In this document: one piece after another, positions 1,355 through 63,794 of the stretch
Position numbering within the stretch: position 1 is the first letter of the stretch
Layout of the letters: every line of letters begins with the position of its first letter
NCBI GenBank assembly: GCA_964035545.1
Contig: OZ037767.1
Coordinates: 6,774,707-6,838,706, forward strand
Direction of reading: 5' to 3'
Length of the DNA: 64,000 nt
DNA from: Bugula neritina
Taxonomy: Eukaryota; Animalia; Bryozoa
Notes under the pieces: model-generated
What the model saw: only the letters and a program-made list of their open reading frames with translations
What the model was told of the DNA's origin: nothing
Database searches by the model: none
Position numbers and translations under genes: made by a program

Positions 1355-1383
1355 TGTGAATGAGAGTGGTATGTTTATGAATT

Positions 1384-3468: not shown

Positions 3469-3574
3469 ATCCCAACTTGGCGGGGTCTACAGGTGTAACA
3501 ATGTCATCTTCCTCCTCTTCACTTAGTGGCATGAGTAGTTCCGTAGCTCTTTCTTTCATCTTGAAATACGCGAA

Positions 3575-3592
3575 ATCCCACTGCTGCCACCA
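3575..3592 (-). promoter_or_regulatory. Primer binding site, tRNA-Leu type
   Basis: Minus strand TGGTGGCAGCAGTGGGAT, 1 nt from the LTR; one mismatch to the element 2 PBS; complementary to the ...AUCCCACCGCUGCCACCA 3' end of metazoan tRNA-Leu(AAG). Confidence 0.85.
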
Positions 3593-3593
3593 C

Positions 3594-27200: not shown

Positions 27201-30200
27201 AAAAGAAGCAGTTTAAAAAATGTTCTTCATTGCTACAATTCATGACTTCTGAAATGTGCCCACTTGACACTAGAGGAAGCTGTGTGTAAGTTGAGACAGT
27301 GAAAACACTAATAATTATGTCACAGAATCAATACCCAACACCATGTTATCTCAGCACCATTATATGCTATGAACATAACACGGCATATTACAAGGACTTG
27401 TATTCTACCATGCAGGGCTCTATGGACAAGTGCCAGCTAGTCATGGTATGTTTCACCCTGGGTTCTACCCTCCAAGGTGTCCCAACCCCGGAGACATGGC
27501 TACTCTACAAGCATATGGCCACCCGCCTTACCTGCAGACACATTCACTCGGCTATCCTATGAGTGGTCCACGTGCACGACCCCCTAGACCACTTCGGCCC
27601 CCTCGGCCCAGTCATCCCCAGAATATCGCACCTCCTCACTTTGGCCCAGCACATGGGGGCAACATCAACAGACATTCTGATGTACAACACAGAAAACACC
27701 AGGTTTGTAGTAAACCACATTAATGCATTTCTACTACTTTTTTTTATAAGGATACCAGTGCTATCACTGTAATACTACCACAATCAGTGCAAACAGCACG
27801 GCCAGTACCAACTTGACTAAGTAATGATTATAATTAAAAGCAGCAGTTTATCCAGTCACTATGTTTTGCTCATTACAAAGTCAGCTTGACAGTTGATATA
27901 CTAGTTAGAAGGTGTGAGATGCCTATTTCTGTCTGCACTTGGTATTTTCATTGAGGGAAATGAGTAGTGCATGCATTCAGAGCTGAGCTGGGAACCATTT
28001 CAATTTATATCAATTTAATCATTTATTAGTCCAATTCTCCGGGAAGTTGTGAATTTTGTGACCGATTTTTTTTAGCCATATAAATTTCATAATGAGCAAG
28101 AACAATATAAATAAGTTAGTCTATCTTAGTGCACGTGTTTGGGCAAAGCATGTTGATTTATAACAGCCGAAAGGTTTCGTTTCATTTTAAGAATTCACTG
28201 TACACTGTTAAGGTTATAATATAAAACAAACAACAATAGAAAGTTGGTACCTGTATTTATTATTGCTCTCTGTTGTCAAAGCATTACGAAATTTTGCTGT
28301 AGAGACGGCTAATAGGTTCCATTATACCTTTTTACTTGCCCAGTCACTCAGCGAACACAATAGGTTTCTTGCAGCATTCAATAAACTATTAACTTTTACA
28401 TTTTAAATAATATCGGTAAGGTCTATAATGAAATAGCAAATTGGTGCTTTATAAATGATGTGATAAGCTCTCATAATTGTCACTAAATTATGTTGTAATT
28501 AGCAGAGTGTTGAGGAACATCTTGCTTAAAAAGTTCACTATTCCTGGGTAGACAGAAAAAAACTTCAATTTGATTTGAGTGGAAACGCTGCTAATTGTCT
28601 TAAATTGTCCTGAATTAGTTTAACTGGTTTATCTAGCGCAATGGACAAAATCCTGTTGCACCTACATAATATGAATCTCTGGTAGGCTGCCAACTAACTG
28701 TGAATGGCCAGTAGTGTGAAAATATGTTTATATGGTAAATTAACTTGAAATTTTTCTTTTGTTCCAACAACCTATTGTAGTTTTGTAATTGTGTGCTCAA
28801 CATAATGAGGTTAACTAATTTATTATATTATGGTTAGCCTGTGTTCATCCAAGCATACAACTTTAACAATCTGGGGAAGGTATTGAAAAAACTATTCAAT
28901 GTAACAGTGTTTGTAGATTATTTCTACGGCTATTGTTCAACTCATGTGCTCTATATGGAACAGTAGTTACCAACCATGGGGATCCCCCTTCGGAAAGGGG
29001 TCATTTCTAAAAATTTTCTTGCAGTTCATTAATGCTTTTTGAGCTCTTGCCTTCTTCCCTATATATATCTATAACACCTCCACCTTATAGTTAATCTATT
29101 TTCTGCATTTAACCATCTAAATTTGTTTCCACCTGCATGTGTCTATTCATCACTCTACCTAACTGCTACCTGTGTTACTTCAAATGGAGGTTAAACAGTT
29201 TTTTGGGAGCAAAAACAACAAGAACTTTTAGCAGCCATGCAAGCTGACATCAATGAAGAAACTTAAACCTAAAACTGCAAGAGTGCAACCATCACATATT
29301 TGCTTTTCATAGCAGCATCAAAACCTCCAAAGCTAAGCTGAAGTTGTAGCAGACTTGCTTCCATATCAAAAATATGGTGTCTTTCCCACACCCAATGAAT
29401 AATTTATTAGGAAAAAACATGTTCCAGATTCTCTTTCTAAAAGCACTTCGCTAATATAAACTTGTGTGATGTGTTGTGTCAGTCATGTTAACTTGCATTT
29501 GTTTTGCTGTTGACATTACCTTATGGCTGTGGTTTCCTTCTATGCAACATTTCCATTAGGTGAATGAAAACTCCATTCACATCATGCAATCATGGAAATG
29601 TAGCGATAAACTCCAATTTTCAAAAGGGTTGAAATTAACAGTAATAAGAAGGGAATGGTATGAAAAGGTTGAGAATCACTGATATAGAATGTAATTTCCT
29701 GTTGATTGTGTAGAAACAAGGGTCAAGCTCTGACAGAAGACCAAAGATCTCGGTTGGCACACAGAATGAGTTTGGTTCAAAACACACCAACACTAAGTCT
29801 GGGAATGTATCCACCCGGTCTCTCACTAAGACTATAATGCTCATGGACACAGCCGCTCAAACTGGTCAGTTCTCTTTCCCCCCACCTTATAGTTACTAGC
29901 TCTGTATAGTAGTGATCTGGTGGTAGGTTGTTATCTTCTTTTGCCTATTTTCCTGAACCAGTATACCTGTATTACCTGTACTATAAGATAGAGAGAGTGT
30001 GTACCAACAGTGGTGTGTATAACTTGGCTATTCAAACTTCAATTCATCTCCCTTCACATTACAATGCAGACCTAAGCTTGCCCATAGATATGCCCTCTAT
30101 CCTACAAGAGTACTGGGTTATATTTCAAAACAATTTCTATGAATTTGTTGCAGATTTTGCTTCGGAGATTGCAGACCACACCTTGGAGCAGGTGCCCAAC

Positions 30201-33200
30201 GCTTTGTATCAGGGAAAGCGTAAGTTACGGCGGAAGACATTCCCCTCCCGGCAGCAGCATAATGGCGGCACGGATTCAACTGACAGCGAGGAGTTGGACC
30301 ACAGTGACTCTGGCTACTCCAGCCCTATGCACCGGCAAAACCAGATAAGCAGTGGAACAGATGCCCAGACCAAGACTGTGGACTCACACTCTAGCGGTGT
30401 ATCGGTGGGGGCGGTCACCACAGCCACCCATTACGTGACCACCCCGCCTCTCTCTGTGGTGACAGTCTCACAAGTTAGCTCGTGTACCCAGCTGCGACAA
30501 GCGAGTAGCGTGTACCATGCCACCCCCCTCTACAGTGAACAAATAACTCCCAGTCTAAGGAAGAGTTATGCCCTCTCTGCCAGTCTACACAGACCAGCCA
30601 TGGTAACAGTTCCTCATCTCCACACCAACATGCCTCAGGCTACGGGCTCACTCGCTCAGACCAAAGACAGCGCGCTGTCGGAGCAGGAGGATGAGTTGGA
30701 GGAAGCTCACCCTTCTGGAAAGAAAAGGAAGCGGAAACGAGGACGTCGGCGTAGAAAGAAAGGTATGTTCTGGGGATCTTAGAGTATACAGGAAACATAA
30801 AGTGTACGTGTTTAGTCACATCTAATTCAGAGATTCAGCTTCCGTTTGTGTTCATATGTAGTTATGTTGTTATGATAGTTTATAGTAAAGGTTGGAAATA
30901 CCTCTGATAGATTGCTGTGTGTTATGGGCCACTTCTAGGCAATTCAGTAGCTGCCTTTTCAAACCCGTCTCATGTTACAAGCATAAACTGTGTAGTCATT
31001 ACAGCTCAGTATGCTGAGTGTTTCTATTTCCACTAAAAAATAACTTTTGATAAGTTGCTGCAGCTATGAATGCCATTACATGGTGATTACTTGTAGTAAT
31101 GTTTGTAGCAATGTGAGGTATGCATGCTTTTCCTTTAGTGGTTAGGCAAGGCAAGGCAATGACTGAGCTGTGTATAGCCCAGTGAGTCACTGCCTTAAGC
31201 TAATCATGTAGTAACAATTAATTAGTTTATAAATACTCTAATTAAGCTGATATAATAGAACTGAAATAAAACCTAGCCTCGCCTCCTCAACTAACGAGTA
31301 ACAACCAACAGGTTGGGCCATCAAAGAAACTATTCAAGTGTTTGATAAACTCTGGAGAATTATGGTCTAGAAAAAATGCTTTAAATATTCCATATAATCT
31401 ATATTCTAGAATCTAGATACTGGCTACAGTTTCTAGAATGTTCCAGTTATAGGATGTCCATATAATATTTACCATCTTCTCACTGCAAAGCATTGAAGGG
31501 TGCTGATTGCAAATATCAGTTTTTTATTGAAAGATAAATAACATTTTAGTTTCATTGTTTTGGGTGAAGTGCTGCAGTGTTATGTGGAGCCAACGCTGTT
31601 TGAAGAAACTCACTTGTAGAACTAGTTTCTACTCAGAGTTTACCAAGAGACCATCATTTAGTATTTACCTTCCCAAATCTTTCACTCCAAGTAGAAGAAA
31701 TGATGCCCCCCCCTTGTCCCTTATACTTCTTCCTAAGCCCCCTATGGTCCTTCTATGCCCCATTATGGTTCCCTGTGGTCTCCTATACCCCCCCTATGGC
31801 CTGGTTAGACACATGTCAATCCAACTGATGATCTCTACTCTCTGCTGTATTTACAGACAAGACTTCTGCAGAAGATGGAACTGGGGGTAAAGTTGGAATT
31901 GTGGAAAACTTAGAGGTTCGCAATGTGAGTTTTATTTATATCCAGTGAATATTACACAAGTGTGTAATAGTTGGCTGTCTCTTTCAGATACACATATACC
32001 CATATCTTATGATGATTAACACTTGTTTGTTTCTATCCAGCAATCACCAATCCTTAGTCAAGAAACACCATTCAACTTGCTTTCACCTGACAGAATAGCA
32101 GAAAACTTCCCTTCTTTTGCCGAGGCTGGGTTGTACGACGGTAAGTGTCTGGTTCCACCAATCACATTAGCCGTGTCATAATATTGATTATACAGAATTG
32201 ATTATACTGAAACTGCAACTTCTACCGGAAGAACAATAGCATAACATTGTTACTCCTTATACATCAGTACCTCTCAATGCAATCTTTCAGCTCACATTCC
32301 TCTGTTTTAATTTATTAGAAATTACACAGCATGTTAATCTTGCGTTTTATAGTTTTTTTGCAGCACATAATCCCAGCATTATCCCGATATTTAGTTTGAG
32401 TTATGTGAGTTAGTATGGTATAATGTAGAGCTACAGGTACTGGATGGTAAATACCTTATATATCAAGCTACTGGCTCTCAGCTTGAGACAACCTCCATCT
32501 TGAATGTCCTTTCATAGTTTACTTGTCTTGGAATAATAGCATTTGATTTTAGAAGTCAAATGAAATGTAATTAGTTTAATGAGTCAGAAGTTGTTAGGCA
32601 GCAGTTGTGCTGACCTAACCTCTTAAAGTATTATCTGCAGCTGATGTCTGCTGTTTTTATTTCAGTTAGTCAACAAATTAAACTTTCTAGTTTCACTACA
32701 GAGTGTCTCTTGTCAGTTTAGTGGGTATTTTACTCTGCAGTAAGGAATTGCCTCCTCACTCACAAGCTTGCTGATAGCTCCCAGACAATAGTCACTTGGA
32801 TTAATCTAAGCTGTTCATATAGCTGAATGTTTCAAAAGCTTAGCTGTCAGTGTAGTCGAGTGTTGTGAATCCTTATAGAGTCTTGAGTTTTCTGGTTTGG
32901 GTCACTTCACCCACCCCCCCCCCCCCCAACTCTATTGCGCAGATTAGAGTTAGAATTGAATTTCTTAGATTCCTCAGAGTGTAAGCTTTCTGGAAAGAGG
33001 AAGAAAAGGCGGGAACAGGCTAATAAAGCTGCAATGGAAGAGCAGTTGGAGATTGACCTTGAACAGCAAGCCCTCAAGGTCGTTAACCAGACTCCTGTGA
33101 TAGTGAAACCTACGCCCCTTCTGGTCTCACCCCCTCCTGCCAGCGGTAAGAAGTCCCAGCAGCCAGTCTCAATAAATCTGATGGACTTCATTGCTAGCCC

Positions 33201-36200
33201 TAGTCCCAAGGTAAGTCTTTACACCTGAAGTTGTCCCCTCACTACAATACGAAACCACTTTATCCAGTAAATATGTAACTGTGAATGTATTCTTCAGTTA
33301 GAAATGGAAGGAATCTGCCAGCCTTTTTAAACCTAGCAAAAGTGGTGCAGAGAAAGTCCTTTTGTTTCTAGTATCTAGTGTTGAAGTAAACTTTATAAGT
33401 GTTTTTGATTGTTGGTAGTCAAGAGAGATTTTGTAAAAAGTGAATGCCTTGCTTTCCTGCTCTTCCTGTAATGCTATAACTTATTCCACGTTATTAGTAT
33501 ATTCTGTACTGTAACTAGAATCCATGCTGTAAAATGTAGGAAACATTCACCAGTGTTTACATGTGTTGTGATTGGTAGCTAGTGTAGCCTTTGTGCTCTG
33601 GTTATTGATTGTTTCAGTGTAGGTCAGTCGCATTCTCTATATACTTGTACATGAACTGCCACACTGTATTATATCGCTGACAGGCAGTTTTATATTACTC
33701 ATACAATATTTATACTATTAATATAACTGTAGTTTTATATTACAGCTTATAGTGTGTGTACTTTATATGGCATACACTCATTGTAGTTTAGTTATTTATT
33801 ACTACTCTGAACAAAATGGCTGTATATTATACGAGATGGTTCTCTTACCTATTAAGTATGGCATCTATCAACACTTGCAATGTTACATTCATACAAGGTT
33901 CCATTAAAGGAAGGCTTGTCATGTTTCCTGCCCTTTAGGACAGGCATTTCTATATACTTTTAACCAGTGATTTCTGAGGGCCTGCAGCCAGTCTAATCAA
34001 ATTTAGACTGAGATCCTAGAGTAGTTATATTACTCTAAAGGGTCCCGACATAGCTGAGTCTGTAGGCCGCAGACACTCAATTTCAACTTGTATTCAGTAA
34101 AAAAATATTGTTCTGTTTGTATTTTATAGCATAATGGAAGCAATGTTATAATATGCAGCCAATATGAGAAGACAACTCCTGTAGATAGAAATACTCATGG
34201 AATGTATTCATTTGTAGCCTCTGCAGTCGGATACTGAAACGCCCACGCCGGTGCAGAAAAAGAATAGCTTTAGTCCCAAGAGTACTGCAGCTCTCAATCC
34301 ACTGGACTCCTCCGCACCCAACCAAAAGCGGGGCAAGGAAAGGGAGACCCCTAAGGCTAAGAAACCCAGTGCCCTCAAGAAAGTCATTCTCAAAGAGAGA
34401 GAAGAGCGGAAACGGATGAGGTAGACGTTTTTGAAACTGTAACTTTATAAAGTAACATAGAGATGTGTTTATAGAGCAAAATTCTGCATGTAATTTTAGT
34501 CAATAAAGTTGCTTTGTTAAAAAGAGCTGGTGATATCCTAGCAACCATTAGCTCTGAACTCAAAGGATCCGCCATCAGTGTAATACTAAAGTGTCTTGCT
34601 TGCTGCCGCTTGTTTGCTGACTTAGTGTGTGTCTTAGTAATTCCTCTGGCCAATTAGATGTTGGGTTTGTGTTCAGGTACATTGGAGACGGGCCAGTTGA
34701 TCTGATCTCTACACCTGACTCCAGTCTCCACTTCACTTCTGAACCGGAAGAGAACGACGAAGATGATGTAATCAGTGACATAGAAGAAGCCAATTTGCTA
34801 GGCAATAGCTCTATAGGTTGGTAAAACTAGCACCTCGTTTCCATTTCTTGGAATGGATCAGTTTTGATGCATTTGTGGTTTCGGTTCCCATTAACTTATG
34901 GTTACGGTTTCACTCATTCAACTGTTCCCAAACATCAAATGAAAAATCCATGCAAGCAATGGAAACACAGTGATGGTATATAAACTTTCTGTTGGTATTG
35001 TTGTCTCTGTATTTATACTGTTTCAAACTGATGAACTGGTATGACATATTGAAAGCCTGGTGGAATTTTAGCTCAATATTTTTATAGTACAAGACATAAA
35101 AAGTTAAGCATTGCTAGACATCAGTTAGGTTCACGGTGCCAGGTCAAGTGAGAGTAAGTGATTGCAGCAGATGTGTGAATGTGATGGCATATTGTGTGGA
35201 GTGTCGGTTACAAATCTGCAGCTTCTGTTACATTGTGTCAAAGGTTCTTAGAAATAATTAGTCTACAGTGACGTATTCAGCACTATATAGTAATTATATA
35301 TAACACCATGTTGCTCTGCTTACCTGTAGTACACTCTGCCATATGTATTTTCATCATATCAAAGTAGTGTTGAAGTGATTGGAGACTTGCAGGTTTTAAA
35401 AATCCCCAAAAAATGACAAATATGGTTTTATGTTTGAATGTTTATTGTGGTTGTTGATAGATAACGTGTCTTCGTATTACAGGAGATGACTCAGGAACAC
35501 CCCATAGTCAAGATTTATCCCCTGTTAGTCAAAACTCTCCGATAAGTGTCGGATTGTTGTCTCCCCCGACCAGCCTGAGTAATCCAGCCAGTGGTATCGG
35601 CAGCCCTACTGTTGTCAGCGACATCATACAGAAGATCCATTCCCGTAGATTTAGAGAGTAGGTGTTGGGCACGCTCTATAGATAATGTATAAACCTTCCC
35701 ATTCTATTTGTAGATAAGGTATAAGTTTTTCCATTCTATTTGTAGATAATGTATAAACCTTCCCATTCTATTTTTGATAATGTATAGACCTTCCCATTCT
35801 ATTTTTAGATAATGTATAAACCTTCCCATTCTATTTATAGACAATGTATAGACCTTCCCATTCTATTTATAGATATTGTAAGCAAGTCCTGGACAAGGAG
35901 ATTGATGCCAACTGTACCAACCTTCTGCAAACTCTCGTCAAGTTCCAAGACCGGCTCTACCACAAGGACCCTATAAAAGCAAAGACAAAAAGAAGGCTTG
36001 TACTGGGTTTAAGGGAGGTCACCAAACACCTCAAACTTAGAAGGGTTAAACTGGTCATTATATCTCCTAATCTCGAGAAAATACAGTCTAAAGGTAAGAA
36101 ACTTTATCTTTCTAAATTAATTTTGCCCTGTGAACAGTCGATGAGTTATATTATATGTTTCATGAGATATGGAAGGGTACATAGATCCTTCTGCTGTATT

Positions 36201-49599: not shown

Positions 49600-52299
49600 C
49601 TAACGGCCCTGAGATTTATATATTTTCATTATGTGGGCAGTCTCTGATAGAGCCATATTAATGCACATAGAATTGTTCAAGCCAAAATCAGTTAGTAGAT
49701 AACCTTGCGAGTTACCATATGGACGGAATCGAAAATCTTTTATTTTATAAGCAGGTAAAGACTCTTTAATGCATAATTTTTCCCAAGAAGTTCGTAGCTT
49801 CTTTAATCTTAAGACCTCACCAGCAAGGTAATCTTTTTTCCTAGCAATAATGGCTTCCAGTTTATTTTTGAAGTAACAATATAATGAAACGTCAGCGCTT
49901 AGAAACTTGTAGACAGTAGCTCTATTTTTTTCGTTGTCTTCAGGTAAAAGAGTTTCATTTTTCGTAGAAGATGTCATGTCGCGTTGACGATTTGACTGAA
50001 AGTAAAGAATATCTAAATCTTTCCACCCTAACATATCTCTTAGCAATATCAGGCATTCATCAAAATATTCAACAATAATTACGAAATGGAATTGTTTTTC
50101 AAGGCTATTAATTAGCTCCTCTATGACTTCGTGATTATTGCTGTTTGCTAAGCTAAGACCTAAATCATATGCTTGAGGATTTTTAAAAATAGTATTGCAA
50201 ATACGATGTCCAGCATTGATCAATTCTAAGAGAGAATGATTCCGATTATCTTGGCTATGCTTGCAGTTTTGCAGATGATAATATCGATACACTGAAGCAA
50301 GCTGTTTAAATGGATCCCTTAGAGAAGTCAGGTAAAAGCTGTCTGCCGGCATAGTCTTTACCAGATCATCAGAAAAAACAGTATGCAAACAAAACACATC
50401 TGGGACTTTTTTGCCTAAATGAGGATACAAATTTTGCCGGAATTTGTTGGGCCAACCAAAATTGACCAAATTCTTTCCAGGAGGAAAAGCAAATGACAAG
50501 TTTCTCTTAACTCCTGCTCTCATAATGATGTTCTGTATAGTGCAACTAGCAGTCTTATGCACTTTTAGATAGACGATGTGGTTACTATTGAAAGCTCTAT
50601 GATTGAAATACGTTGAGGCTTTATGTTTTATGAATTCCCCATCTGCTATTTGTGATAATGCTTTAAGGTGACATTTTTCCTCTACATTAAAATAGTGAAG
50701 TTTTAAATCTGCTGCAGAGTTATAACCTAAAAGTATAAAAAATATTTCTACCTACTTTTATTATAATAGGACTAGGACTACCATTGTAACTGTCATGAGC
50801 AAGGCAAACATACAATAAAAACTAAAGCTTAGGATTTGGTGTCGAATTAATAAAATGTATTATCCAGCTTGCAAAAAAGATGAAAAGGTTTCTGGAAATT
50901 GGTAATTTGCACTAAAAATATTTGGCTGCAAGTGGTATTTTCAAAGTAAAATTACTTGGTGTTAGACAATTTTAGTTTTATTTTAATGAACCAGAATCAT
51001 AATTTATTATTGAAACAATGATTAGACAAAAATATAAGCTCCTTACCAACAAACAAGTAGACAAGAACTGAACTCAGAGCCAAAATCAGCAATGCTAGAA
51101 CTTTTGCTTGTTGTCTGCTCAGAATGTTTAATCTGAAAAAAAATTATGGCAACAGAAGTGGTTAAAACTCAAGCAAGTTGAACGCTGAAATCTCTAACTG
51201 TTTTAAACTATATAAGTTCAGCCAACATCTGCAATAATTTATAGCTAAAGGTGTCAACAAGCTAAGATTTCAAAAACGTCTATCTTTTTTTAATTTCAAT
51301 ACAGCTCTCAACTACAAGCTAATGAATCTTACTATGAAACACAACTTTATATATTAATGGCAGAGCTTTTCGAATTAAAATTTCTTAAAACAATATGTTA
51401 TTATAGGCTATATAAATTAATTTGACCAAGACTAAGGTGGCAGTGGTAGAACTGGAGTATTTATAGAACTGCTGATAAGCTGGAAGACAAGAAAACTTAT
51501 GAGTTATGACAAAATTATATTCTGCACTACACCCAATAGCAAAAGCAGAAAGGCTGGCTGCATGTATGTTAGAAGGAAAGAAGACAGCAGAGGAAAGATT
51601 TCAATTGAAAAATGTGAATAATTAAACTTGTCAGATAACATCAAGAAAAGACCGTAGAAGAGAACACAACATTCAAAAGATTTCTTGAAGGCAAAACCAC
51701 GTAGCAGTTAGCAGTAAACATTGATAAAGTAATTGAAAAAACTAATGAAGGAAAAGAAAAGGCTCTACATGATCAGTACACCAGGAGCTAGTATGAATGG
51801 TTGAAAAGGCAAACAGAAATACTGTTGTTGGCTGCTTAAGATTAGGCACTTCCTACTAGGAATAAACAAGGCAGAAAGAAGTGTTGGACATGAAATGAAA
51901 GGCATGAAACTGTGATGCATAGCCTACACCCAGTAAATGTGAGAAGCAAACACCGAGCAAATTTTAGTAGAGAAATGAATATTTGGCTTTTTTAATTCAC
52001 TGAGAAGTGTCTGAAATCCATAGATTTCAGAAGAGCACGAATTGGTTCAACCACAGAGTAGAATTAGTAACCGAGAATGAAAACATAATTTTTTGGTTAT
52101 TTCAAAATGTACACTAACAGAGTCATCAAAGCTAGAAGAAAGGCCTAATATCATTGTAATTGACAAGCACACTGCAAAAAATAATGATCAATAATATAGC
52201 GGTCTTTGGCGAAAATAATAGAGTCAGAGAAGATAGGAAAATACCAAAAGATGACATTACAACTCACCCATCTTTGGGGAAATTCTTAGTAATCTCCAT
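49600..52299 (-). CDS. GAL3ST: Galactose-3-O-sulfotransferase family protein; exons 52299-52268, 51132-51047, 50726-49600; 414 aa
   Basis: Type II transmembrane anchor VLALLILALSSVLVYLFV; 5'-PSB motif IVYLKVHKTASCTIQNI; 3'-PB motif LTSLRDP...SVYRYY; NPQAYDLG; FVIIVEYFDECLILL. Exon phases are compatible. Confidence 0.9.
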
Positions 52300-54035: not shown

Positions 54036-54581
54036 TATCTTGATCTTGATTGGGTTAATTAAGTCACAAGACCTCTCGGAGAGAGTAATTATGGGACCCT
54101 CGGATCTATCCAGGCTCAGAAATCCGCTACTATCTCCCCCGTACGGAGCTCCCGGACAGTGCGCAACAGGAAACCCTGCAGGTACAAGCTCGAATCGCAG
54201 GCTATAGCATTGTAGGTGTTAATACGGGTATTAATGTTATGGGTTGAGGATTTCATAGATTTAAGTGTGTTATTTATGGTTGGAAATAAATCATCATTAG
54301 CAGTAATACGACACAACAATCATCATGACTGTCTGCGCTTTCTTAATGTTTCTAGGCCTAGGCCGATACTTCTCTACCTTTTAAATTTTTAATGAACCGT
54401 ACAACCCTATTTTGAGTAACTTCTAATTTTGTTATTAGATGTTTATTGCATGGGTCCCATACTTCAGCAGCATATTCCAGGAGAAGTCTAAAAGAGTTTT
54501 ATATGCAAGAATTTTAACATTTTCTGGGGCATTTCCTAGTGTGAGCCAGAATAAACCTAATACTCTGTATGCCTTTGATAT
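54036..54581 (-). mobile_element. 3' part of a decayed LINE (ORF2 C-terminus, 3' UTR and tail), split by element 2
   Basis: Continues KHVENLI|SKAYRVLG...LAYKTL, then (frameshifted) LEYAAEVWDP and ...GFLLRTVREL; stop at 54116; short (ATCAAG)n tail. Confidence 0.8.
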
Positions 54582-54890
54582 TGTTATGATTTTCAGAATT
54601 AGGGTTGATATGCAATCCAGAGAGTCTAATTACTTGCTATAGAACTGCACCAGGATAAGTCGAGTGAACGAGTATATATTTTAAACACACAGATACATTA
54701 CAAAAACGATACAAACACATTTGACAATTCACACATCTAGACTATTCAACACTCTAACTTCGACTGACTGACAGCGGGAAAACTATGATTGCTGCTAACT
54801 AACTCGAAGCCGCTAATTGGCTATCAATTGTTCCGGGTCAATTACGCGACCCTATATACTGTGCTGCTGGTAGCTCCACGAGCCACCACA
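54582..54890 (-). repeat. 3' LTR of element 2
   Basis: TG...CA termini; matches 61786-62094. Confidence 0.96.
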
Positions 54891-54910
54891 CCGCCCCCAC
54901 CAGCAGAAAG
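54891..54910 (-). other. Polypurine tract of element 2
   Basis: Minus strand CTTTCTGCTGGTGGGGGCGG abuts the 3' LTR. Confidence 0.75.
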
Positions 54911-55182
54911 CCCTCTTTCTGATATAAAAAAAAACATTCGTCATTAACCACATACATCAATAGACCAAAAGATAATACATAACACATATAAAGATATCTA
55001 ATAACAGACAGAGTCATTATAACAGCAAGTAACATACAATTGGCCAGCTATAGAGGAGGAATACCGGCTAGCTGTGGTATTGGACAAGGAGTCGACCTGT
55101 CGAGCAGTCAAGCATTTACATGATAGTCTTGGGTCTCCCAAGAGGACGAAGTTGTGGATTATTCCGGGTAGCAGAACCAGAG

Positions 55183-56255
55183 TCAATGTTGGGCACGCCG
55201 ATGTTTGGCTTGGCATGTACGTAGCTTCCGCTTAATCCGGCCCACTGATCCTTTCAGTTGGAAGAGCCCCGTCGTGGTATTGAGCAGGTCGGGTGCTAAC
55301 TGGGTAAATTCCTCCTGCAGTCGGAGGAGACGCTCCTCTACTGTGGCTAGGCGAGCAGGGTCTGGGGACGGTGTCCGTCTGCGGCGCAGAGGGGGACTGG
55401 GAGACCTGGTTCGTCTCTTCATCGGGGTAGGGGAGACCTCTCCTTCTTCGGGATAGGAAAACTCTTCGGGGGTGTACGCAATCTGAGGGCGGTCAGATAC
55501 CAATGGAGATTGTTGCCTGGCATTGTCTAGTACACGCTGGAAACCTGAGGTCAGGACGGCTAACAACATCGCCTTCTTTACTAGGGGTCGTATCAGAGTG
55601 AGGAATTCTGGATAGAGCTTGGCATCTACCACGTAATTCTCTCCGGAGAAACAGCCTGTTGCTCGATGTCTGGTGACAGGGTAGGGGTAGACATCATTGT
55701 ATCCGCAGGGGCAGAATGTGAGTAAGAGATGGGCGTTGACGTGTAGCTTCAAGGAGCGGTGAGAGGCACATTCTTCGCCACAAATCTGGCACCGCGTCCG
55801 TCCTCTGGACCCCCAGGCCGTTTCTATCTGCTCCTCTGTTTCTGGAGACACCCACCGCCAACGGCGGCGCAGTGGCTCGGGCCGGTCACCATTGGCATAC
55901 TCCTCAGGATGCGGAGCGGGAAGTGCTCTATCCCGTACCCTGGTTGTAGCGGGTCGAGTGTAATCTGAAAAAGTTTCAACAGTGTTAGTACAGTACACTG
56001 CCGTGTTGTCGGCTTGAATAGCCTGGCAACTCCTCATTCAGTTACCTCGTAGAGATCTATGGTAGTGAATAGTCAGATAGAACACGTATTGCAATGAGAT
56101 TATAAAAATCTCTAAGTCAAACTGAGTTCTTACTACGGTATTTCACTAACCTATCTCCAGCTCAATTGACTCGGTGAGTCGGAGCTGAGCGATGCAATCT
56201 AGTTTCCATATTAAGATATAGTTAACTCACCCCACGATCTGTTGTCGTACGACAT
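55183..56255 (-). CDS. Retrotransposon accessory ORF3: zinc-finger/Arg-rich/coiled-coil protein; predicted exons 56255-56231 and 55964-55183, 268 aa
   Basis: CQIC-x12-HVNAH finger, CPC...H...C cluster, RRTRSPSPPLRRRRTPSP and heptad C-terminus. Micro-exon MSYDNRSW, G|GTGAGT donor, TACTAAC branch point (55990-55984) and TTTTTCAG|AT acceptor join in frame. Confidence 0.78.
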
Positions 56256-56279
56256 ACTGAATTTGTGAAATGGTTTGAA

Positions 56280-56528
56280 CTACTGCTTAGAAACACGTCT
56301 ACTCCTGACTGCATCAGCGTATGAAAAGATCGAGCAACGTGGTTGGGGTGCGTGATTAAGACTTTGTGCACCCGGCGGATGAATTTTGTTTCTATTTCCG
56401 CCGATACAAAAGTTGATATTTCCGTGGTGTTGACAACTCCCACATTTGCTCGATACTTTTCTCGTACGGTTTTCCCCTAGACTTTCATATGCGCCACTTT
56501 TAACGCAGTCGCATACGAAGTCCTTCAA
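56280..56528 (-). other. Out-of-frame C-terminal tail of Pol
   Basis: Homologous to the in-frame tail of the element 1 ORF; rejoined to Pol by removing one base from the G7 run at 56535-56541. Confidence 0.7.
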
Positions 56529-59500
56529 ATATGCGGGGGGGTTGCCTCGTACGTTGTCCCCTTTCTAGGGGGGGTGACACGCTCGCCGGTTTATTAGCAG
56601 GGGCCTCTAATGGCGTCTCTACTTCACCGTTGGCGGTCACTTCTTCTTGTTCTCCGGATGGAGCCCCTCCCTCCGTGGGGGTTTGCACTTCCGGAACCGG
56701 CCCGGTTTCTGGAAGTGATGGAGTTAGACTTGGTGGCGGCGGACACGCTTCTGTTGGCAAAAGCTGTCGCTCTTCTCTCACCAAGTTTTCCTCCCGCGGT
56801 ATGACCACTTCATATTCAGGTCCATGCCGCCGTCGCCCGCGCGTTGTTGTCTGCCTCCTGGGCTCCAACAACGGGGGGGCTTCTCCCACTGCGTCGGGGC
56901 TAGCCCAATACGGCTTCAAGCGAGACTCATTCTGGATAGACACCTGTCCTGAGCGCTCAATCTTGTACGTATGGTTGGGCATAGCCTCGACGATCACGTA
57001 GGGTCCCACGAACTTAGGCTTTAATTTGTCAGCCTGCCCGTGACGCCTACGGTAATTGACCATCCACACCTTATCTCCCGTTTGGTAGAGAGGTGGTTCC
57101 TCGGAATCTTCGTGCCGCACCTTCCACTGCTGTTCGCGCAGTATATCGTGTGCGGCCTTCATCCGTTCCACTAGTTCACTGGCATACTCGTGAATCGAGT
57201 TGTCTAGCTCTGGAACGTGGTAGGTGAGATGGTCAGGTACCCGGGTTTCTCTCCCGAGCATCAAGAGGTTTGGGGTCTCACCAGTACTGGTGTGTGGGGT
57301 GCTACGGTATGCGCGCATGACCTGCGGCAATACCGTGTCCCATTCCTCTTGACTGCGTCCAAGGAGGAGACTCCGGAGCGCATCACCTAGCATCCGGTTG
57401 TTGCGCTCCACCACCCCATTACCTTGTGGGTGATAGGGGGTGGTCCTGCTCTGATTTACTCCCCAGAGGCGACAAAGGTCGCTCATCAGTTGAGACTGGA
57501 ATTGAGCGCCTTGATCAGAGTGTATCTGCTCGGGGAGACCGAAATAACAGAATACATGTTGGTCTAGTACCCTGGCCACTGTCGGGGCTGACGCATCTGG
57601 GATAGCCAGAGCATCCGCCCACCTAGTAAAGTGGTCGGTTAATACTAATATCCAACTATTGCCTCTGGGGGTCAGGGGCATGGGTCCGACCAGGTCTACA
57701 GCGACTACTTGCCAGGGCCTTCCAGCATATAGCCTCCGCCGTCCCGCTTCACCAGGGAGACGGCTATGCTTACTGGCCTGGCAGATCTCACACTGTTTGA
57801 CTCTGAGTCGGACGTCACGCTCCATGCGTGGCCAATACCACCGGAGTCGTAATTTGGACATCACTCTCTTGACCCCTGCGTGGGCCTGTTTGTGAGTATC
57901 CCAAATCAACTCACGGCGGATGGCAGTGGGGCAGACTACCCTCTTCCTCTCCGGATGTCTGCCGCTGGCGGCTAGAGAGATGGTTAGTAAACCATCCTGC
58001 CCGATCCGCAGCGAGTCCCAACGCTGACAGTATAGCCGGAACTCGGCGCATCCCTGTCGTATGCGTTCCTCGCTGGGTCGTCGCCCTTCCCTCTTGGCCC
58101 GATATATGTCTGCCACGACTCCAGGCAGCTCTTCTTGGAGCTTCTTCAGCTCTCGGACATTATCGGCCAGTACAGGGTTGGCGCGGAGGTTTTGTACAAC
58201 CTCCGGGGACTCGTCAACCTCCTGTCCGAGTTGACCCTGGTCCCAGTCAAACGGTGCTCCGTGGTGAGCCAGCGTCTCCAACTCACATCGCGGGGGACCT
58301 CCATCCCTCCTCTCGATGTGGAGACACTGTTTGCAACCTCCATCAGGTCGGCGACTCAAACCATCCGCATTGCTGTGTCTCTTGCCCGGTCGATGTTCGA
58401 TCCGGTATGAGAATTCAGCTAGGATTTCGAGCCACCGGGCGACCTGACTAGAGGGCTCTGCTCTCTTGCACAACCAGATCAGCGAGGCATGATCCGTACG
58501 CAGCCGGAACTTCCTGCCATATAGGTATGGTCTGAAGTGCTTCACTGACTTGATTACTGCCAGCAGCTCCTTGCGGGTAGTGCAGTAATTTCGTTCAGTG
58601 GGTGAGAGAGACTTGCTGTAGTAGGCTACTACTACTTCTCGGCCTTCCTGCACTTGAGACAGCACAGCGCCAACATTTTGGTCACTGGCGTCAGTGTCGA
58701 GGATGTACTCCAGAGTGGAGTCTGGGTAGGCCAAGATGGGCGCCGTTAGTAGGCAGCCCTTGAGGCGGTCGAACGCTCCTTGTTCGACTGGGGTCCACTG
58801 CCACGTCACTCCCTTTGCGGTGAGCCGGTTTAACGGCTGTGCTATGCCCGCAAAGTCTGGTATGTATTGTCTGTAATACCCTACCAGCCCCAAGAAAGCC
58901 CGGAGTCCGGTCAAGTCTTGGGGGGTGACCCAGTCTTCTATTGCCCGTACCTTCTCGGGATCCGTTGCCACGCCGTTTCGACCGACAACGTGCCTCAGGT
59001 ACTTAACCTCTGGCTGCAATAGAGCGCACTTGGAAGGTTTGAGCTTAAGACCGGCACCTTGGAGTCTCTCAAAGACCTCCTGCAGACGACTGACATGCGT
59101 CTCGAAGTCTGGGGAGATCACGATGACATCATCGAGGTAGATCAGCAGTGTCTTCCAATGGAGCCCGCTGAGGACTTGCTCCATCAACCTCTGGAAGGTG
59201 GCTGGGGCGGAGGTTAACCCGAACGGCAACACCTTCCACTTCCACAAACCGTCCCGTGTGATAAACGCCGCTTTCTCCTGGGCGTCGGGACTCAGAGGAA
59301 CTTGCCAATAGCCACTCAGCAAGTCTAACGTACTGAAGTACTTGCTGCCGGCTAGGTCGTCCAATGACTCGTCAATACGAGGTAGAGGGTAGGCGTCCTG
59401 TATGGTTACGCTATTGAGTTTGCGGTAATCCACACAGAACCGCCAACTGCCGTCTTTCTTCCGGACCAGTACGACCGGCGAGCTCCACGCACTATGGGCG

Positions 59501-60852
59501 GGCTCTATCAGTCCCCGGTCCAGAAGATCCCGTACTTGTCGGCTAACCTCCTTCTCTTTCTCCGGCCCCAGCCTACGTGTGGGTTGCCGGACAGGGACTG
59601 TCCCTGCAGTCAGCGGTATTTCGTGTCTGACAACTCCAGTCAGCCCCACGTCATGATCTCCGCTGCTGAACACATCACCGTAGTCGCGTAGTAACTTCGC
59701 CATAGCTTGGCGTTCTTTGTTACTCGCGCAGCCGCCACAGGCTGTGTCATACAACTCCCGGAGATGTGCTGGGACTGTCCCTCGCCCTTGAGTAGGGCAC
59801 CGAGGGAATGCCTCCGTCGCATCACCCAGCGACGGGCCTACGTCCTCCTCCTGAACAGAGTGAAAACGGCCCAGCATAGACCCAGCCGGAAGCTTGACAG
59901 ACTCGGTAAAGGGGTTGACGCACTGCACTAAGATCTCCCCTTGCTCAGTCAGCTGATTCAGACTGCTGGCAAGTTGGATCTTTTCGTGCGCGCCTTCAAC
60001 TACCCCGAGTCCAGAGATCCGGCTATTGTTCACCCTGCAGTGAATGGTAGCCCGGGAGCGGCCTGGTATGGTACGGTTGCGTACCACCTGCACACCTCCC
60101 ACTAAAGGGCGGCCGAACTTGTCGACGCAGGCGAGTTCTCGCCCGGACATCATCATCGCAGATTTACTAAAATCGATGTGACATCCGTGCCGTTTTAGGA
60201 ATGGCATCCCGAGGATGGCGTCCTCCTTGAGCTGACTGACGATGAACGTCTCTTGGATCGTTTGATCACGGACTCGTCCCGTCAGCTCAATTATACCATA
60301 GAAGGGAAGGCACGACCCGTCAGCTAGGGTGCCATACTCCCCCTCGTATGATTCCATCTCGCCCCTGACCCTAGCACTGAGGGTGTCGAAGAGTTGGCGG
60401 CTTAAGAGGTTTGTGGTACAGCCCGAATCAATGAGGAAAGTAACAGCTTTGCCTTCCAGTTTACCGGGCAAGAAATAGCTGTTCCCATGGGGCTGCACCT
60501 GAACTCTCTCTTCAGGCCTTACTCTCGCAGGGAGTACCTCCCTCGCTTTGGGTCGCGAAGGAGGTCTCTTGGGATGGTGGTAAGTAGGCCTCGGAGGTGC
60601 CGAGGCTAGATTTCCGGCTACCTTTGTTGGCTCCCATCCAGATTCTTGGGCTGGTAGCCCTTCGAATCGATTGTGGAGGGGCATGGAAAAGGTAGCGGCG
60701 GGGCGGAGCCCCTTGCTGGTCCGTCGTGGCTGTTGCCACTGTCGGTTGCCAGTACGCGGTGCCCGTCTGGGTGACCTGCGTTTCTTCTTCCCTGGAGGTT
60801 TCATCGTCGGCCCGCAGGAGGTGGGAACATCTGCGGGCCGCGGTAGTTTAAC
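56500..60852 (-). CDS. pol: Pol polyprotein (protease, RT, RNase H, integrase), expressed by -1 frameshift from gag
   Basis: LIDSG; WRFCVDYRKLN; LPFGL; YLDD; LDTDAS...TDH...ADGLSR; HHCC; DLVGP...HSDQG...GVVER; GPY motif. Confidence 0.96.
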   Translation of the reverse strand, partial: VKLPRPADVPTSCGPTMKPPGKKKRRSPRRAPRTGNRQWQQPRRTSKGLRPAATFSMPLHNRFEGLPAQESGWEPTKVAGNLASAPPRPTYHHPKRPPSRPKAREVLPARVRPEERVQVQPHGNSYFLPGKLEGKAVTFLIDSGCTTNLLSRQLFDTLSARVRGEMESYEGEYGTLADGSCLPFYGIIELTGRVRDQTIQETFIVSQLKEDAILGMPFLKRHGCHIDFSKSAMMMSGRELACVDKFGRPLVGGVQVVRNRTIPGRSRATIHCRVNNSRISGLGVVEGAHEKIQLASSLNQLTEQGEILVQCVNPFTESVKLPAGSMLGRFHSVQEEDVGPSLGDATEAFPRCPTQGRGTVPAHLRELYDTACGGCASNKERQAMAKLLRDYGDVFSSGDHDVGLTGVVRHEIPLTAGTVPVRQPTRRLGPEKEKEVSRQVRDLLDRGLIEPAHSAWSSPVVLVRKKDGSWRFCVDYRKLNSVTIQDAYPLPRIDESLDDLAGSKYFSTLDLLSGYWQVPLSPDAQEKAAFITRDGLWKWKVLPFGLTSAPATFQRLMEQVLSGLHWKTLLIYLDDVIVISPDFETHVSRLQEVFERLQGAGLKLKPSKCALLQPEVKYLRHVVGRNGVATDPEKVRAIEDWVTPQDLTGLRAFLGLVGYYRQYIPDFAGIAQPLNRLTAKGVTWQWTPVEQGAFDRLKGCLLTAPILAYPDSTLEYILDTDASDQNVGAVLSQVQEGREVVVAYYSKSLSPTERNYCTTRKELLAVIKSVKHFRPYLYGRKFRLRTDHASLIWLCKRAEPSSQVARWLEILAEFSYRIEHRPGKRHSNADGLSRRPDGGCKQCLHIERRDGGPPRCELETLAHHGAPFDWDQGQLGQEVDESPEVVQNLRANPVLADNVRELKKLQEELPGVVADIYRAKREGRRPSEERIRQGCAEFRLYCQRWDSLRIGQDGLLTISLAASGRHPERKRVVCPTAIRRELIWDTHKQAHAGVKRVMSKLRLRWYWPRMERDVRLRVKQCEICQASKHSRLPGEAGRRRLYAGRPWQVVAVDLVGPMPLTPRGNSWILVLTDHFTRWADALAIPDASAPTVARVLDQHVFCYFGLPEQIHSDQGAQFQSQLMSDLCRLWGVNQSRTTPYHPQGNGVVERNNRMLGDALRSLLLGRSQEEWDTVLPQVMRAYRSTPHTSTGETPNLLMLGRETRVPDHLTYHVPELDNSIHEYASELVERMKAAHDILREQQWKVRHEDSEEPPLYQTGDKVWMVNYRRRHGQADKLKPKFVGPYVIVEAMPNHTYKIERSGQVSIQNESRLKPYWASPDAVGEAPPLLEPRRQTTTRGRRRHGPEYEVVIPREENLVREERQLLPTEACPPPPSLTPSLPETGPVPEVQTPTEGGAPSGEQEEVTANGEVETPLEAPANKPASVSPPLERGQRTRQPPRIFEGLRMRLR

Positions 60853-61754
60853 CCCGGAGTTAGGAAGGGACAGTACCTGCGGAAATGTCCTTGATTTCCG
60901 CATTCCCAGCAAAAACTGACCGTTTCCCCCTGTGGCGGCGCCGGTGGCCGTACGGGCTCAGCGGCGGTACCTACTGGGGTTTGGGGTGTCAGTGTTGCTA
61001 TCAGTTTGGCCAGCATGTCTGTCAGTTGAGTGACTTTTGATGCTGTCGCTAACTGAGCCACGGCAGCCGTGGCGGAGGTTTCCTCCTCTCGTCCTGCTGC
61101 CGTGTCCGTGCGGTCTACCTCCACTTGACGGGAGCTCCCGCGACTTTTATGCATTTGACTTGCTAGGAGGTAAGCTTCCCCCTCAGTCAGAGCATTTTCA
61201 ACGGTGGTGACTCCCCTAGCTAGAAACTGGTGGTGGAGACCCAAATCGTCGACAGATGCTATGAAAGCGTCGAGGGTATACCTCTCGCGGTTGACTGGGG
61301 GCAAGTCGCTGTATGCGATCTGTGCCAGCTTCATGACCGCGGCGGCATGCTCTCGCAGCGGGGTGCGGGGATCACGCCGCAACCTCTGCAATCGGGCCCT
61401 GGCATCTGTAGCAGAGAGGCCGAAGCGGGCCCGCAGAGAAGCAAAGATATTATCGATGTCTACGCCCAGCCCATAAGGCTTGGCTTTGTCCATCAATGCC
61501 ATTCTAAGCTTTAGCAGGGCCACCCTAGGGGGCCACTGGGCGACGTCCATTACGTCGCTAAACTCTTGGATGAATTGTTCCACCTCCTCTTCGCCCGTGA
61601 AGGTGGGCGCCTTTAACCGGTAGCGGTCTTCAGTTAGTTCTCGCGGAACCCTTCGCTCTTCTACTACATGGTTAATAGGCATTGTCTCTACAGCATTGTC
61701 TCTACGCTCACCTTCTACTGCCGGTGGTTGCGTTCCAGCATTTTCAGTCTCCAT
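60801..61754 (-). CDS. gag: Gag (317 aa) with CCHC zinc knuckle
   Basis: ATG just after the PBS; KAPTFTG...FIQEF capsid-like region; CWECGNQGHFRRYC. Confidence 0.93.
   Translation of the reverse strand: METENAGTQPPAVEGERRDNAVETMPINHVVEERRVPRELTEDRYRLKAPTFTGEEEVEQFIQEFSDVMDVAQWPPRVALLKLRMALMDKAKPYGLGVDIDNIFASLRARFGLSATDARARLQRLRRDPRTPLREHAAAVMKLAQIAYSDLPPVNRERYTLDAFIASVDDLGLHHQFLARGVTTVENALTEGEAYLLASQMHKSRGSSRQVEVDRTDTAAGREEETSATAAVAQLATASKVTQLTDMLAKLIATLTPQTPVGTAAEPVRPPAPPQGETVSFCWECGNQGHFRRYCPFLTPGLNYRGPQMFPPPAGRR
60808..60852 (-). promoter_or_regulatory. -1 programmed ribosomal frameshift signal
   Basis: G_UUA_AAC in the gag frame (60852-60846), a 5-nt spacer and a perfect 10-bp GC stem CGGCCCGCAG/CUGCGGGCCG, all inside the gag/pol overlap. 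Confidence 0.8.
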
Positions 61755-61766
61755 CTTGGATGCACT

Positions 61767-61784
61767 ATCCCACCGCTGCCACCA
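61767..61784 (-). promoter_or_regulatory. Primer binding site, tRNA-Leu type
   Basis: TGGTGGCAGCGGTGGGAT (18 nt), 1 nt from the LTR. Confidence 0.9.
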
Positions 61785-61785
61785 C

Positions 61786-62094
61786 TGTTATGATTTTCAG
61801 AATTAGGGTTGATATGCAATCCAGAGAGTCTAATTACTTGCTATAGAACTGCACCAGGATAAGTCGAGTGAACGAGTATATATTTTAAACACACAGATAC
61901 ATTACAAAAACGATACAAACACATTTGACAATTCACACATCTAGACTATTCAACACTCTAACTTCGACTGACTGACAGCGGGAAAACTATGATTGCTGCT
62001 AACTAACTCGAAGCCGCTAATTGGCTATCAATTGTTCCGGGTCAATTACGCGACCCTATATACTGTGCTGCTGGTAGCTCCACGAGCCACCACA
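61786..62094 (-). repeat. 5' LTR of element 2
   Basis: Matches 54582-54890. Confidence 0.96.
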
Positions 62095-63794
62095 ATATGA
62101 GATTTTCGACATGCTTATTCCATTTTAAATCTGCTGATAGCAATATTCCAAGGTATTTTACAACTCCAACTCTATTCAGGGGATCTTCTCCTAATTTATA
62201 AGTGAAGACATTTTCCATATTTTCTGTTTTCTTACCAAAGGTGATCACATTACTTTAATTCTTTGAGTTAAACTTCATATTGTTTTCTTTTGCCCACCTA
62301 TAAAGTCTAGAAAGATCTTCCTGTAGTTTATGATGATCATTTGGATCAGTAATGGGCAGATAAACAAGAGTGTCATCAGCAAAAAGCCTGACTGTACTAT
62401 GTGTAACGCAGTTTACAATGCCATCAATAAACAAAACGAATAATGTTAGACCCAGCACACTTCCTTGTGGAACCCCGGAAGTCACTGGTGCTAAGTCCGA
62501 AGATACCCGTCAATGACCACTCGTTGTGAGCGTCCAGTTAAGAATGATGAAACCCATCGGATAATACAGGGATTTATTTTTAACAATATCAATTTATTTA
62601 CAAGAATATGATGGTCAATTACATCAAAGGCTTTAGAAAAATCCAGCACAACTGCTTCTACAAAATGTTCTTTATCTATATGCCTTAATATATCGTGGGT
62701 GACAGTAGCGAGCTAAGTAACACATGAAAAGTTGCGGCGAAAACCATGTTGGTTTTCATGTATCAAATTTTCCAATTGTGTGTTTAAATGATGCAGAACC
62801 ACATGTTCAAGAATTTTACAACAAATGCACGTTAGTGATACTGGACGATAGTTGGAAGCTAGAGTGCGGTTACCCTGTTTAAACACAGGTGTTACATTTG
62901 CAGTCTTCCAGTCATCCAGCACTATTCCTGTATTGAGTGAATGATTGAAAATACACACCAGTATTTCTGCTGTTCGATCTAAGTCCACTGTGAGATAGTT
63001 CTTTGTGAATCCATCTACTCCAAGAGCTTTACCTTGTACAAGTTGTCTCAGCAGGTTCACAACTCTTTCTTTAGTTACCACTATATTATCTTTCTCAGTG
63101 ACTGATGGTAATTCTGGTAGAGGTGATGGAGTGGTAAATACACTGTAGAAGAAACCATTAAGAGTGTTAGATATCTTAGTTTTATCATACGTCAAGATAC
63201 CATCGTTGTTTTCTATGGAAGTAATCTCATTATAATTCCTTTTTAGTTCTTTAAAATATTTGTAAAACGGTTTTGTGTAGCCACTGGAAAGAGGTTGGTA
63301 TAGACGATTCACCAGAAAAGATGCTTTTTGTTTTCTAAATAATTTTTTTTATTACGGCGACGTAATTCTTTATATTTAGCCAAGTGATCAGCATTACCAG
63401 ACTTTTGAAAGCGGTTGTAAAACTTTCGCTGTTTCTTACATGCCCGTCTGGCTTCATCATTAAACCAGAGAGGCTCATGTAGATTTCTAGGCTTACTTTG
63501 TTTAGTTGGGACATATGAATCAACAAGTCTATGTAATTCAGTCTTAAATGTATTCCATATAACATTAATATCATATTTCAACATTACTTTGTTTTTAATA
63601 GTATAAAGCAACTCATCTAGACCAGTTGTAAACCCGCCGAGTTCGATTTTGTGGAATAGCTTGATGGGGGGGGGGGGGGATAGATGGTTTCTTCTTCTGT
63701 TCAACTTTACCAGTCAAGACTGTTTCTATCATGAAATGGTCGCTAATACCCGGTGTTATTACGTTTGTGCTTTGAACTTTATATGACAAGTCAG
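62095..63794 (-). mobile_element. Decayed APE-type non-LTR retrotransposon (LINE) ORF2, 5'-truncated
   Basis: PGISDH (end of endonuclease), NYRPVSLTCICCKILEH, QHGFR, LDFSKAFD, SGVPQGSVLG, LFADD, KYLGI; several stops and frameshifts. Clade not assigned. Confidence 0.92.

Follow-up and report, generated by a model that had tools for sequence, protein, structure and literature searches.

A Conserved Non-Env Accessory Gene Encoding Two Zinc Fingers and a Predicted Coiled Coil in Gypsy Elements of Bugula neritina

Our analyses of a 64,000-nucleotide stretch of the Bugula neritina genome (hereafter the window) revealed that two Ty3/Gypsy elements, A and B, carry a third gene, ORF3. As judged from the sequence, ORF3 is supported as a dedicated non-env accessory gene that is under purifying selection and encodes a protein of nucleic-acid-binding-type architecture. 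To that extent the data uphold an earlier note on this DNA, which had proposed a nucleic-acid-binding regulator, and ORF3 probably does regulate the element itself.

Two Gypsy Elements Carry a Third Sense ORF between pol and the PPT

Two GC-rich islands stand out within the 64-kb window against a host background of ~33% GC. The features of the two elements are as follows.

54582-62094, minus strand: element A, a young, near-complete Ty3/Gypsy LTR retrotransposon
54578-54581 and 62095-62098: target-site duplication ATAT of element A, 4 bp
61786-62094, minus strand: 5' LTR of A, 309 bp, same sequence as the 3' LTR
54582-54890, minus strand: 3' LTR of A, 309 bp
61767-61784, minus strand: primer-binding site of A, near-identical in element B
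60801-61754, minus strand: gag of A, one CCHC knuckle; pol overlaps it in the -1 frame
56500-60957, minus strand: pol of A, PR-RT-RH-IN (Pfam), catalytic motifs present
54891-54925, minus strand: PPT of A, with a short conserved inverted repeat immediately upstream
~1-3940, minus strand: element B, an internally deleted relative of A; 3' LTR cut by the window start
55183-55964, minus strand: ORF3 main exon of A, predicted acceptor to stop
326-1068, minus strand: ORF3 main exon of B, predicted acceptor to stop

Element A has the PR-RT-RH-IN order, the TG..CA LTR ends, the duplication, the primer-binding site (PBS) and the PPT of a Ty3/Gypsy element, and its LTRs are identical at 309/309 bp. We take the PBS of both elements to be of the tRNA-Leu type. 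The C-terminal tail of pol contains a frame break near 56535-56541, and reading past this break yields a sequence resembling the end of the B remnant. A PPT-proximal hairpin was not significant against shuffled sequences (z of -0.6 and -2.1). Because one contig of run X2 contains the empty-site joint 54577>62095, the insertion of A is recent and probably polymorphic. Many other joints in X2, within 57248-61767, leave out interior segments of A and point to derivatives of A that, like B, are internally deleted.

Element B still has an LTR, the PBS and the whole region 3' of pol, together with a piece of gag that is joined to the integrase zinc-binding region. Its remnant ORF (1384-3486) is an open gag/pol frame of 700 codons with Integrase_H2C2 as sole Pfam match; the PR, RT, RH and IN core domains are absent from it by Pfam. 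Since all visible LTR bases are identical (51/51), B looks young. The LTRs of A and B, in which the earlier note had seen little similarity, indeed have none by local alignment (score of 24 vs. a shuffled maximum of 28). The pol tail of B also contains a 113-bp tandem duplication (84% identical; 1650-1882) that keeps the frame.

The DNA around the elements holds a galactose-3-O-sulfotransferase ORF in a single frame, a host gene (49600-50751, minus strand; Pfam PF06990, E of 7e-49), and broken non-LTR-type reverse-transcriptase fragments ~600 bases past the 5' LTR of A (62713-63713, minus strand; RVT_1, E of 6.5e-6). An open frame of 288 codons with a Lys/Arg-rich end and no Pfam match (29916-30782, plus strand) is probably a host exon. 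Minisatellite arrays occupy 8584-8863, 14672 onward, 16760-16895, 25401-25568 and 35649-35900, and a 156-bp direct repeat lies at 45648 and 45957.

Between pol and the PPT, both elements contain a third sense ORF, as the earlier note had reported. The open frame covers 55183-56037 (284 codons) in A and 326-1234 in B, and the two proteins share 132 of 265 residues (50%; BLASTP E of 2e-73), including all of the protein motifs quoted in that note. The longer spans that it had given as continuous ORFs, 55183-56255 and 326-1354, do not hold up: without splicing, the frame closes after 14 codons in A (from the ATG at 56255) and after 37 in B. A comparison of the main exon between the two element families, rather than among many copies, gave a pN/pS of 0.38 (bootstrap 0.30-0.47; 213 aligned codons; pN of 0.29, with pS saturated at 0.76). 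The note had named a dN/dS near 1 with frequent stops as counting against the gene, and this was not what was found. Differences fall at codon positions 1/2/3 in the ratio 72/56/134, and the coiled-coil part has an omega of ~0.09. The same A-B comparison gave a pN/pS of 0.32 for the gag remnant and 0.56 for the pol remnant. A chance ORF is rejected, and ORF3 is almost certainly a real gene. That it is intact in the copy lacking enzymes is true but constitutes weak evidence, because the gag/pol remnant of B is likewise open, over 700 codons, and B looks young.

An Env protein is also rejected: ORF3 has no TM helix (highest 19-residue hydropathy of 1.51 in A and 0.88 in B) and no fusion-protein match. 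The earlier argument against Env thus survives in its TM part. Its statement that furin sites are lacking does not, as R-x-K/R-R strings occur (RRRR and RIKR in A, RLKR in B); these are meaningless without a signal peptide.

ORF3 Is Predicted to Be Spliced

The predicted exons, introns and donors are listed below, with the exon-intron boundary marked by a slash.

56231-56255, minus strand: predicted short first exon of ORF3, ATG, 25 nt; ends at phase-1 donor D2, G/GTGAGT
1333-1354, minus strand: predicted B counterpart of the short ATG exon, 22 nt
55965-56230, minus strand: predicted GT-AG intron of ORF3, 266 nt; branch-point-like sequence and pyrimidine tract before CAG
1069-1332, minus strand: predicted B counterpart of the GT-AG intron, 264 nt
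61706-61711, minus strand: predicted donor D1, G/GTGAG, 43 nt after the gag ATG, phase 1
3465, minus strand: predicted B counterpart of donor D1, 94 nt after the ATG at 3559, phase 1

The D2 donor 11-mer is identical in A and B, and the alignment of the 3' regions shows that the branch-like sequence and the pyrimidine tract ending in CAG are conserved. The predicted spliced reading frames, of 268 residues in A and 254 in B, have no internal stop. Because the short exons are both 3n+1 in length (25 and 22 nt) and the introns measure 266 and 264 nt, read-through of the intron cannot be conserved. Among 147 close relatives, 10 reach at least 44 residues upstream of a W-V-S anchor; nine of these have (D/G)(Y/H/C)T at the junction, preceded by S or L in eight of the nine, a pattern compatible with YAG. 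The upstream part of one relative, P0024, maps onto the B intron in two different frames, and the stretch of A from the acceptor to the fingers lacks a Met. On these grounds ORF3 is very probably spliced.

The common acceptor could be reached either from the Gag leader (D1) or from the short ATG exon (D2). Sites of the G/GTGAG type occur at ~5e-4 per base, so that one lying in phase within the first 100 nt has a chance of ~0.02 per element, although we noticed this coincidence only afterwards. The first ATG that follows the PBS in B (3559) is out of frame with the gag remnant and in frame with ORF3, and the remnant's own ATG, at 3468, directly precedes D1. None of the joints among those listed from RNA contigs matched a predicted intron, these being scattered contigs from one RNA run; that run (X1; share of 0.05) gave 20 contig pieces, some only 85-95% alike, and no indication of transcription or splicing.

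Unspliced translation of ORF3 from a downstream or in-intron start, or its carriage as passive host cargo without a role for the element, has very little probability in our judgment. An in-frame ATG at 56037 in A is common to relative P0002, and a Met close to the junction or downstream of it is present in many relatives. The ATG at 56037 is missing, however, from B and from P0049, and the splice signals stay conserved even where the Met does not. As for host cargo, host-like genes with the double-finger domain do exist (below), but selection on ORF3 has operated across lineages of the elements that are saturated at synonymous sites.

The ORF3 Protein Combines Two Zinc Fingers with a Predicted Coiled Coil

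Two parts of the protein are recognizable.

55489-55902, minus strand: double zinc-finger domain, C2H2 (C38 C41 H54 H58) plus CxC-x12-H-x4-C (C64 C66 H79 C84), model numbering
55189-55356, minus strand: C-terminal coiled-coil helix with a basic end, net +9 over the last 30 residues

The 138-residue finger domain was modelled from an 80-sequence alignment at a pLDDT of 93 and a pTM of 0.86. Both fingers are spanned by 169 of 191 domain matches, in which the ligand columns C, C, H, H, C, C, H and C are kept in 164, 165, 157, 159, 169, 165, 164 and 135 of the 169, respectively, and the first seven ligands are all kept in 137. W17 and a V-D following finger 2 are conserved as well. In the model, finger 1 is a classical C2H2 finger, C-x2-C-x12-H-x3-H, with a beta-beta-alpha fold; Pfam zf-C2H2_4 is matched at an E of 0.01 or better by 11 of 80 family members and falls below the cut-off in the window copy. 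Finger 2, we presume, resembles a CxC-type C2HC finger of the BIRD/IDD or ASCIZ kind. The atlas rows for these comparisons had TM values of 0.31-0.34, under the bar, and neither kind was among the 25 of 64 Pfam families listed.

The whole finger domain found no family-level match: the best PDB hit in Foldseek had an E of 0.4, the best VIA row a Z of 3.8, and BFVD gave none. There was thus no hit at an E of 0.001 or better in PDB or BFVD and none with a Z of at least 5, which is not proof of a new fold. The sensible VIA rows are the C2H2 pairs of Kaiso, SALL4 and CTCF, over residues ~28-88; the Kaiso and SALL4 pairs overlay with a Z of 3.4-3.5 and ~3 Å over 51-57 residues. All atlas matches for ORF3 were under 0.9 and were generic C2H2 proteins.

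After the fingers, the model has a low-confidence Ser/Pro-rich linker and then a long helix at residues 203-258. Of 20 distant relatives, most have a C-terminal heptad-like segment, as judged by eye and with a crude score that lacked a control; homodimer prediction, run without an alignment, scored 0.05, which is uninformative. The zinc fingers and coiled coil described in the earlier note are borne out by the model, but its Arg-rich motif is not a discrete family feature: at least five K/R in eight residues occur in 18 of 39 tails, and only 4 of the 39 beat a shuffle of their own composition. B ORF3 has no basic linker. Inspection of ORF3 for an export signal yielded none distinct from the coiled-coil heptads, and Pfam and profile searches found no silencing-related domain.

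ORF3 Relatives Include Uncharacterised Bryozoan Gene Models

Three protein sets gave ORF3 relatives: 74 among 1746 candidates, 138 among 7985 proteins scored with a 42-sequence profile, and 110 among 1.84 billion 50% representatives, where many were 26-40% identical and at least one, P0170, is a generic multi-finger protein. Many are truncated, as expected for copies of a repeat. P0047, which joins a pol-tail-like peptide to ORF3, is the sole hint of linkage outside the window; no DNA context joining ORF3 and pol was found in metagenome or viral contigs, and no longer fused form appeared among proteins of 1044-2980 aa, which is weak evidence. A distant subfamily (P0097, P0110, P0114, P0152, P0171) has at its N terminus an acidic-leucine motif, conceivably for export or for activation, that is absent from the window subfamily.

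Names were carried by 4 of the 30 clusters looked up, all of them bryozoan gene models: XP_067940964.1 and XP_067944745.1 of Watersipora subatra, and KAF6040923.1 and KAF6037488.1 of Bugula neritina. These uncharacterised proteins contain the same double-finger domain, at 27-39% identity to ORF3 (the best stretch with A has an E of 2e-19 to 1e-9), and two of the four have a coiled-coil-like segment at the C terminus as well. Two tandem double-finger domains are present in P0081 (XP_067940964.1), P0126 and P0238 (KAF6040923.1). Because two named models from different genera share an additional N-terminal stretch (20/54 identical, E of 2e-8), the comparison suggests a true cellular gene.

A domain tree was computed from the 71 domains that remained when the 169 were thinned at 72% identity; it used 100 columns and a bootstrap that had not settled. 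In it, the window ORF3s belong to a clade of 11 rows (support 100/99, stem 1.09), and the named genes lie outside, in several places. Recent capture of a host exon, which the earlier note had regarded as the other outcome that would count against it, is unlikely on this tree, with even the nearest named models only 27-39% identical and outside the element clade.

The breadth of the family bears on a role in anti-silencing or chromatin, in which ORF3 would shield copies from piRNA or heterochromatin by binding either the DNA of the element or a silencing factor of the host. Wide diversification, with 26-40% identity and long branches, fits such a conflict with the host, as does retention of ORF3 in the copy lacking enzymes. 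Against it, the searches turned up no domain related to silencing, purifying selection acts on both fingers and coiled coil, and the hairpin described below would be left unexplained; we judge this role improbable.

A Conserved Block with a Predicted RNA Hairpin Follows pol

Sites of noncoding conservation between A and B are as follows.

56289-56444, minus strand: conserved cis block, 115/156 nt (74%) identical to B 1384-1539, gap-free
56361-56413 (B 1456-1508), minus strand: predicted RNA hairpin, candidate response element, ~53 nt, inside the block
55103-55119 (B 252-268), minus strand: 17-nt motif after the ORF3 stop, identical in A and B

Elsewhere, A and B are 56% identical in the intron, 53% in the ORF3 exon and 51% in the 3' UTR. 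Differences within the block show no codon-position bias in any of the three frames (15/14/12, 13/11/14 and 11/14/14), which rules out pol-tail coding as the cause of its conservation. After the ORF3 stop, the 17-nt motif, which resembles a Pumilio/Nanos-type site, is accompanied by a second motif of 16 nt. Read-through peptides of P0074, P0087 and P0102 suggest that the 17-nt motif is family-wide.

On the sense strand, the hairpin has a z of -3.7 in A and -4.2 in B, with 0 of 200 shuffles as stable; the opposite strand folds less well (z of -2.8 and -2.5). The joint A/B fold has an energy of -15.6 kcal/mol, which none of 1000 column shuffles reached, with the qualification that the hairpin window was chosen after the fact and that several other windows also had a z below -2.5 in the column shuffle. 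Single-strand windows of 120 nt across the hairpin gave a z of only -1.6 to -2.4. All 14 stem pairs hold in A and B, and four of them vary, three on one side and one on both; covariation cannot be proved from two sequences (248 of 500 in a pair shuffle). Rfam contained no match at an E of 1 or better. The hairpin falls inside the D1 intron and would be removed by the D1 splice; thus, its restriction to unspliced RNA depends on the use of D1. Element B retains the hairpin, the donors and ORF3 while having lost the enzymes.

This retention also fits a particle-level role, in which the hairpin would be a packaging signal and a fusion of the Gag leader to ORF3 would take part in the packaging of RNA, in trafficking or in tethering to integration sites. 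D1 would indeed fuse ORF3 to the Gag N terminus, and a packaging signal would have to be kept in the nonautonomous B. The common Gag peptide, however, would be only 14-31 residues long and is not conserved between A and B, and D2 would yield a Gag-free form; we hold this role to be decidedly improbable. The predicted hairpin could serve packaging or dimerisation rather than the RNA export proposed below.

The block might instead be DNA that the protein recognizes. ORF3 would then be a transactivator like foamy virus Tas, with the block as an internal promoter that drives the short ATG exon; as a dimer, the finger protein would bind both block and LTR and thereby activate the element. The fold leans in this direction, the finger pair overlaying DNA-binding C2H2 pairs, and the short ATG exon, with its own donor, lies ~35-60 nt downstream of the block. 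The bryozoan models that share the domain have the appearance of transcription regulators, with VKxE/VKTE motifs that we assume to be SUMO sites. However, the structural matches are weak (Z under 4, E of 0.4 or more), and block and LTR share no excess of 8-mers (3 vs. 2.2 expected in A; 2 vs. 2.3 in B), which leaves room for degenerate sites. Moreover, the LTRs have diverged past recognition and the fingers have not, and changes in the block preserve base pairing that a promoter does not need. For third ORFs at the 3' end, the accessible texts on Oikopleura Tor elements (PMC4402516) and foamy viruses (PMC13220597) describe internal promoters, a possible likeness to ORF3; as presented there, Tas is a retroviral protein and the Tor third ORF a membrane glycoprotein, unlike ORF3. 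On balance, we regard a transactivator as unlikely, though as the main rival of the reading proposed below.

Discussion

Strong donors in the genomic RNA of an element oblige it to leave some of that RNA unspliced and to send it out of the nucleus. A layout like that of CERV, the accessory protein of Cer1 discussed below, together with a hairpin in the D1 intron that is kept in the enzyme-less B, makes a Rev/CERV-like role our best single guess. We put it forward tentatively, as somewhat short of probable: ORF3 may bind the predicted hairpin in unspliced RNA for nuclear exit. A fully spliced mRNA would join the first 14-31 codons of gag (D1) or the short ATG exon (D2) to the common phase-1 acceptor and would be exported normally. 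The basic ORF3 protein would enter the nucleus and oligomerise through its coiled coil, and the finger domain or basic segments would bind the predicted hairpin at the end of pol. Removed by the D1 splice, the hairpin would be present on genomic RNA, which, once bound, would escape splicing or retention to be translated and packaged.

HTLV Rex is a regulator comparable to HIV Rev. ORF3 would resemble both if it is a small regulator made, as predicted, from a spliced message, with a predicted structured RNA that overlaps a coding region and would be removed from spliced mRNA. It differs from the HIV system in that Rev has no zinc finger, and in that the RRE, according to the accessible text of PMC4488727, is ~350 nt long vs. 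the predicted 53-nt hairpin here.

The closest likeness is to CERV of Cer1, a Ty3/Gypsy element of Caenorhabditis elegans. As described in the accessible part of PMC10309623, CERV is encoded by a spliced mRNA that shares the Gag N terminus and is needed for export of unspliced RNA; it has a Cys finger, a leucine zipper, a candidate NLS and Ser-Pro phosphorylation. The same text gives it 517 aa, five exons overlapping gag, a C4 loop and a G-protein-like domain, with no obvious homologues outside nematodes. Both are non-env Gypsy accessory proteins with a finger and a coiled coil and, for ORF3 by prediction, a spliced message with the Gag N terminus. That description also sets ORF3 apart, as it is ~255-270 aa long, lies after pol and has C2H2 and CxC-H-C fingers. 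In place of the H-M-G domains with a C4 loop, the ORF3 model has two fingers, a low-confidence linker and one long helix, with no room for a G domain.

Additional ORFs in the same position as ORF3, between pol and the 3' LTR, are described for plant LTR elements (PMC7264820, PMC11963269) and bdelloid LTR elements (PMC5408684) in the accessible texts. The bdelloid non-env ORF3 types are GDSL, DEDDy, and TM or coiled-coil, and zinc fingers are unmentioned in the available portion. In view of CERV and these ORF3s, the premise of the earlier note that Gypsy elements encode only Gag, Pol and sometimes Env was overstated, and a "complex" Gypsy lineage with a non-env ORF3 is an already known kind. 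The ORF3 protein family itself looks new and apparently undescribed. Titles and abstract openings in the literature on Gypsy/LTR accessory ORFs and bryozoan LTR elements revealed no C2H2 accessory gene, and none is named in the accessible parts of PMC2774666, PMC6431247 and PMC8220671; Repbase, Dfam, GyDB, subscription journals and supplements, which lay outside this search, could record the family.

What is new beyond the protein is the conserved predicted RNA hairpin just after pol. Nuclear exit of intron-containing LTR retrotransposon RNA is known for very few elements, CERV being the Gypsy example found, and no RNA target site of CERV is named in the accessible text of the paper on it (PMC10309623). 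In A and B, a candidate regulator lies next to a candidate RNA site, and a small reporter could test both. It is conceivable, if doubtful, that this Gypsy lineage evolved its own Rev/RRE system, independent of retroviruses and of CERV, in which a double finger of transcription-factor type was repurposed to bind a 53-nt hairpin at the end of pol and the module moved between retrotransposons and bryozoan host genes. The finger domain represents an unnamed family, well folded in the model, that is shared with uncharacterised bryozoan genes, and the direction of gene flow between them is a tractable question.
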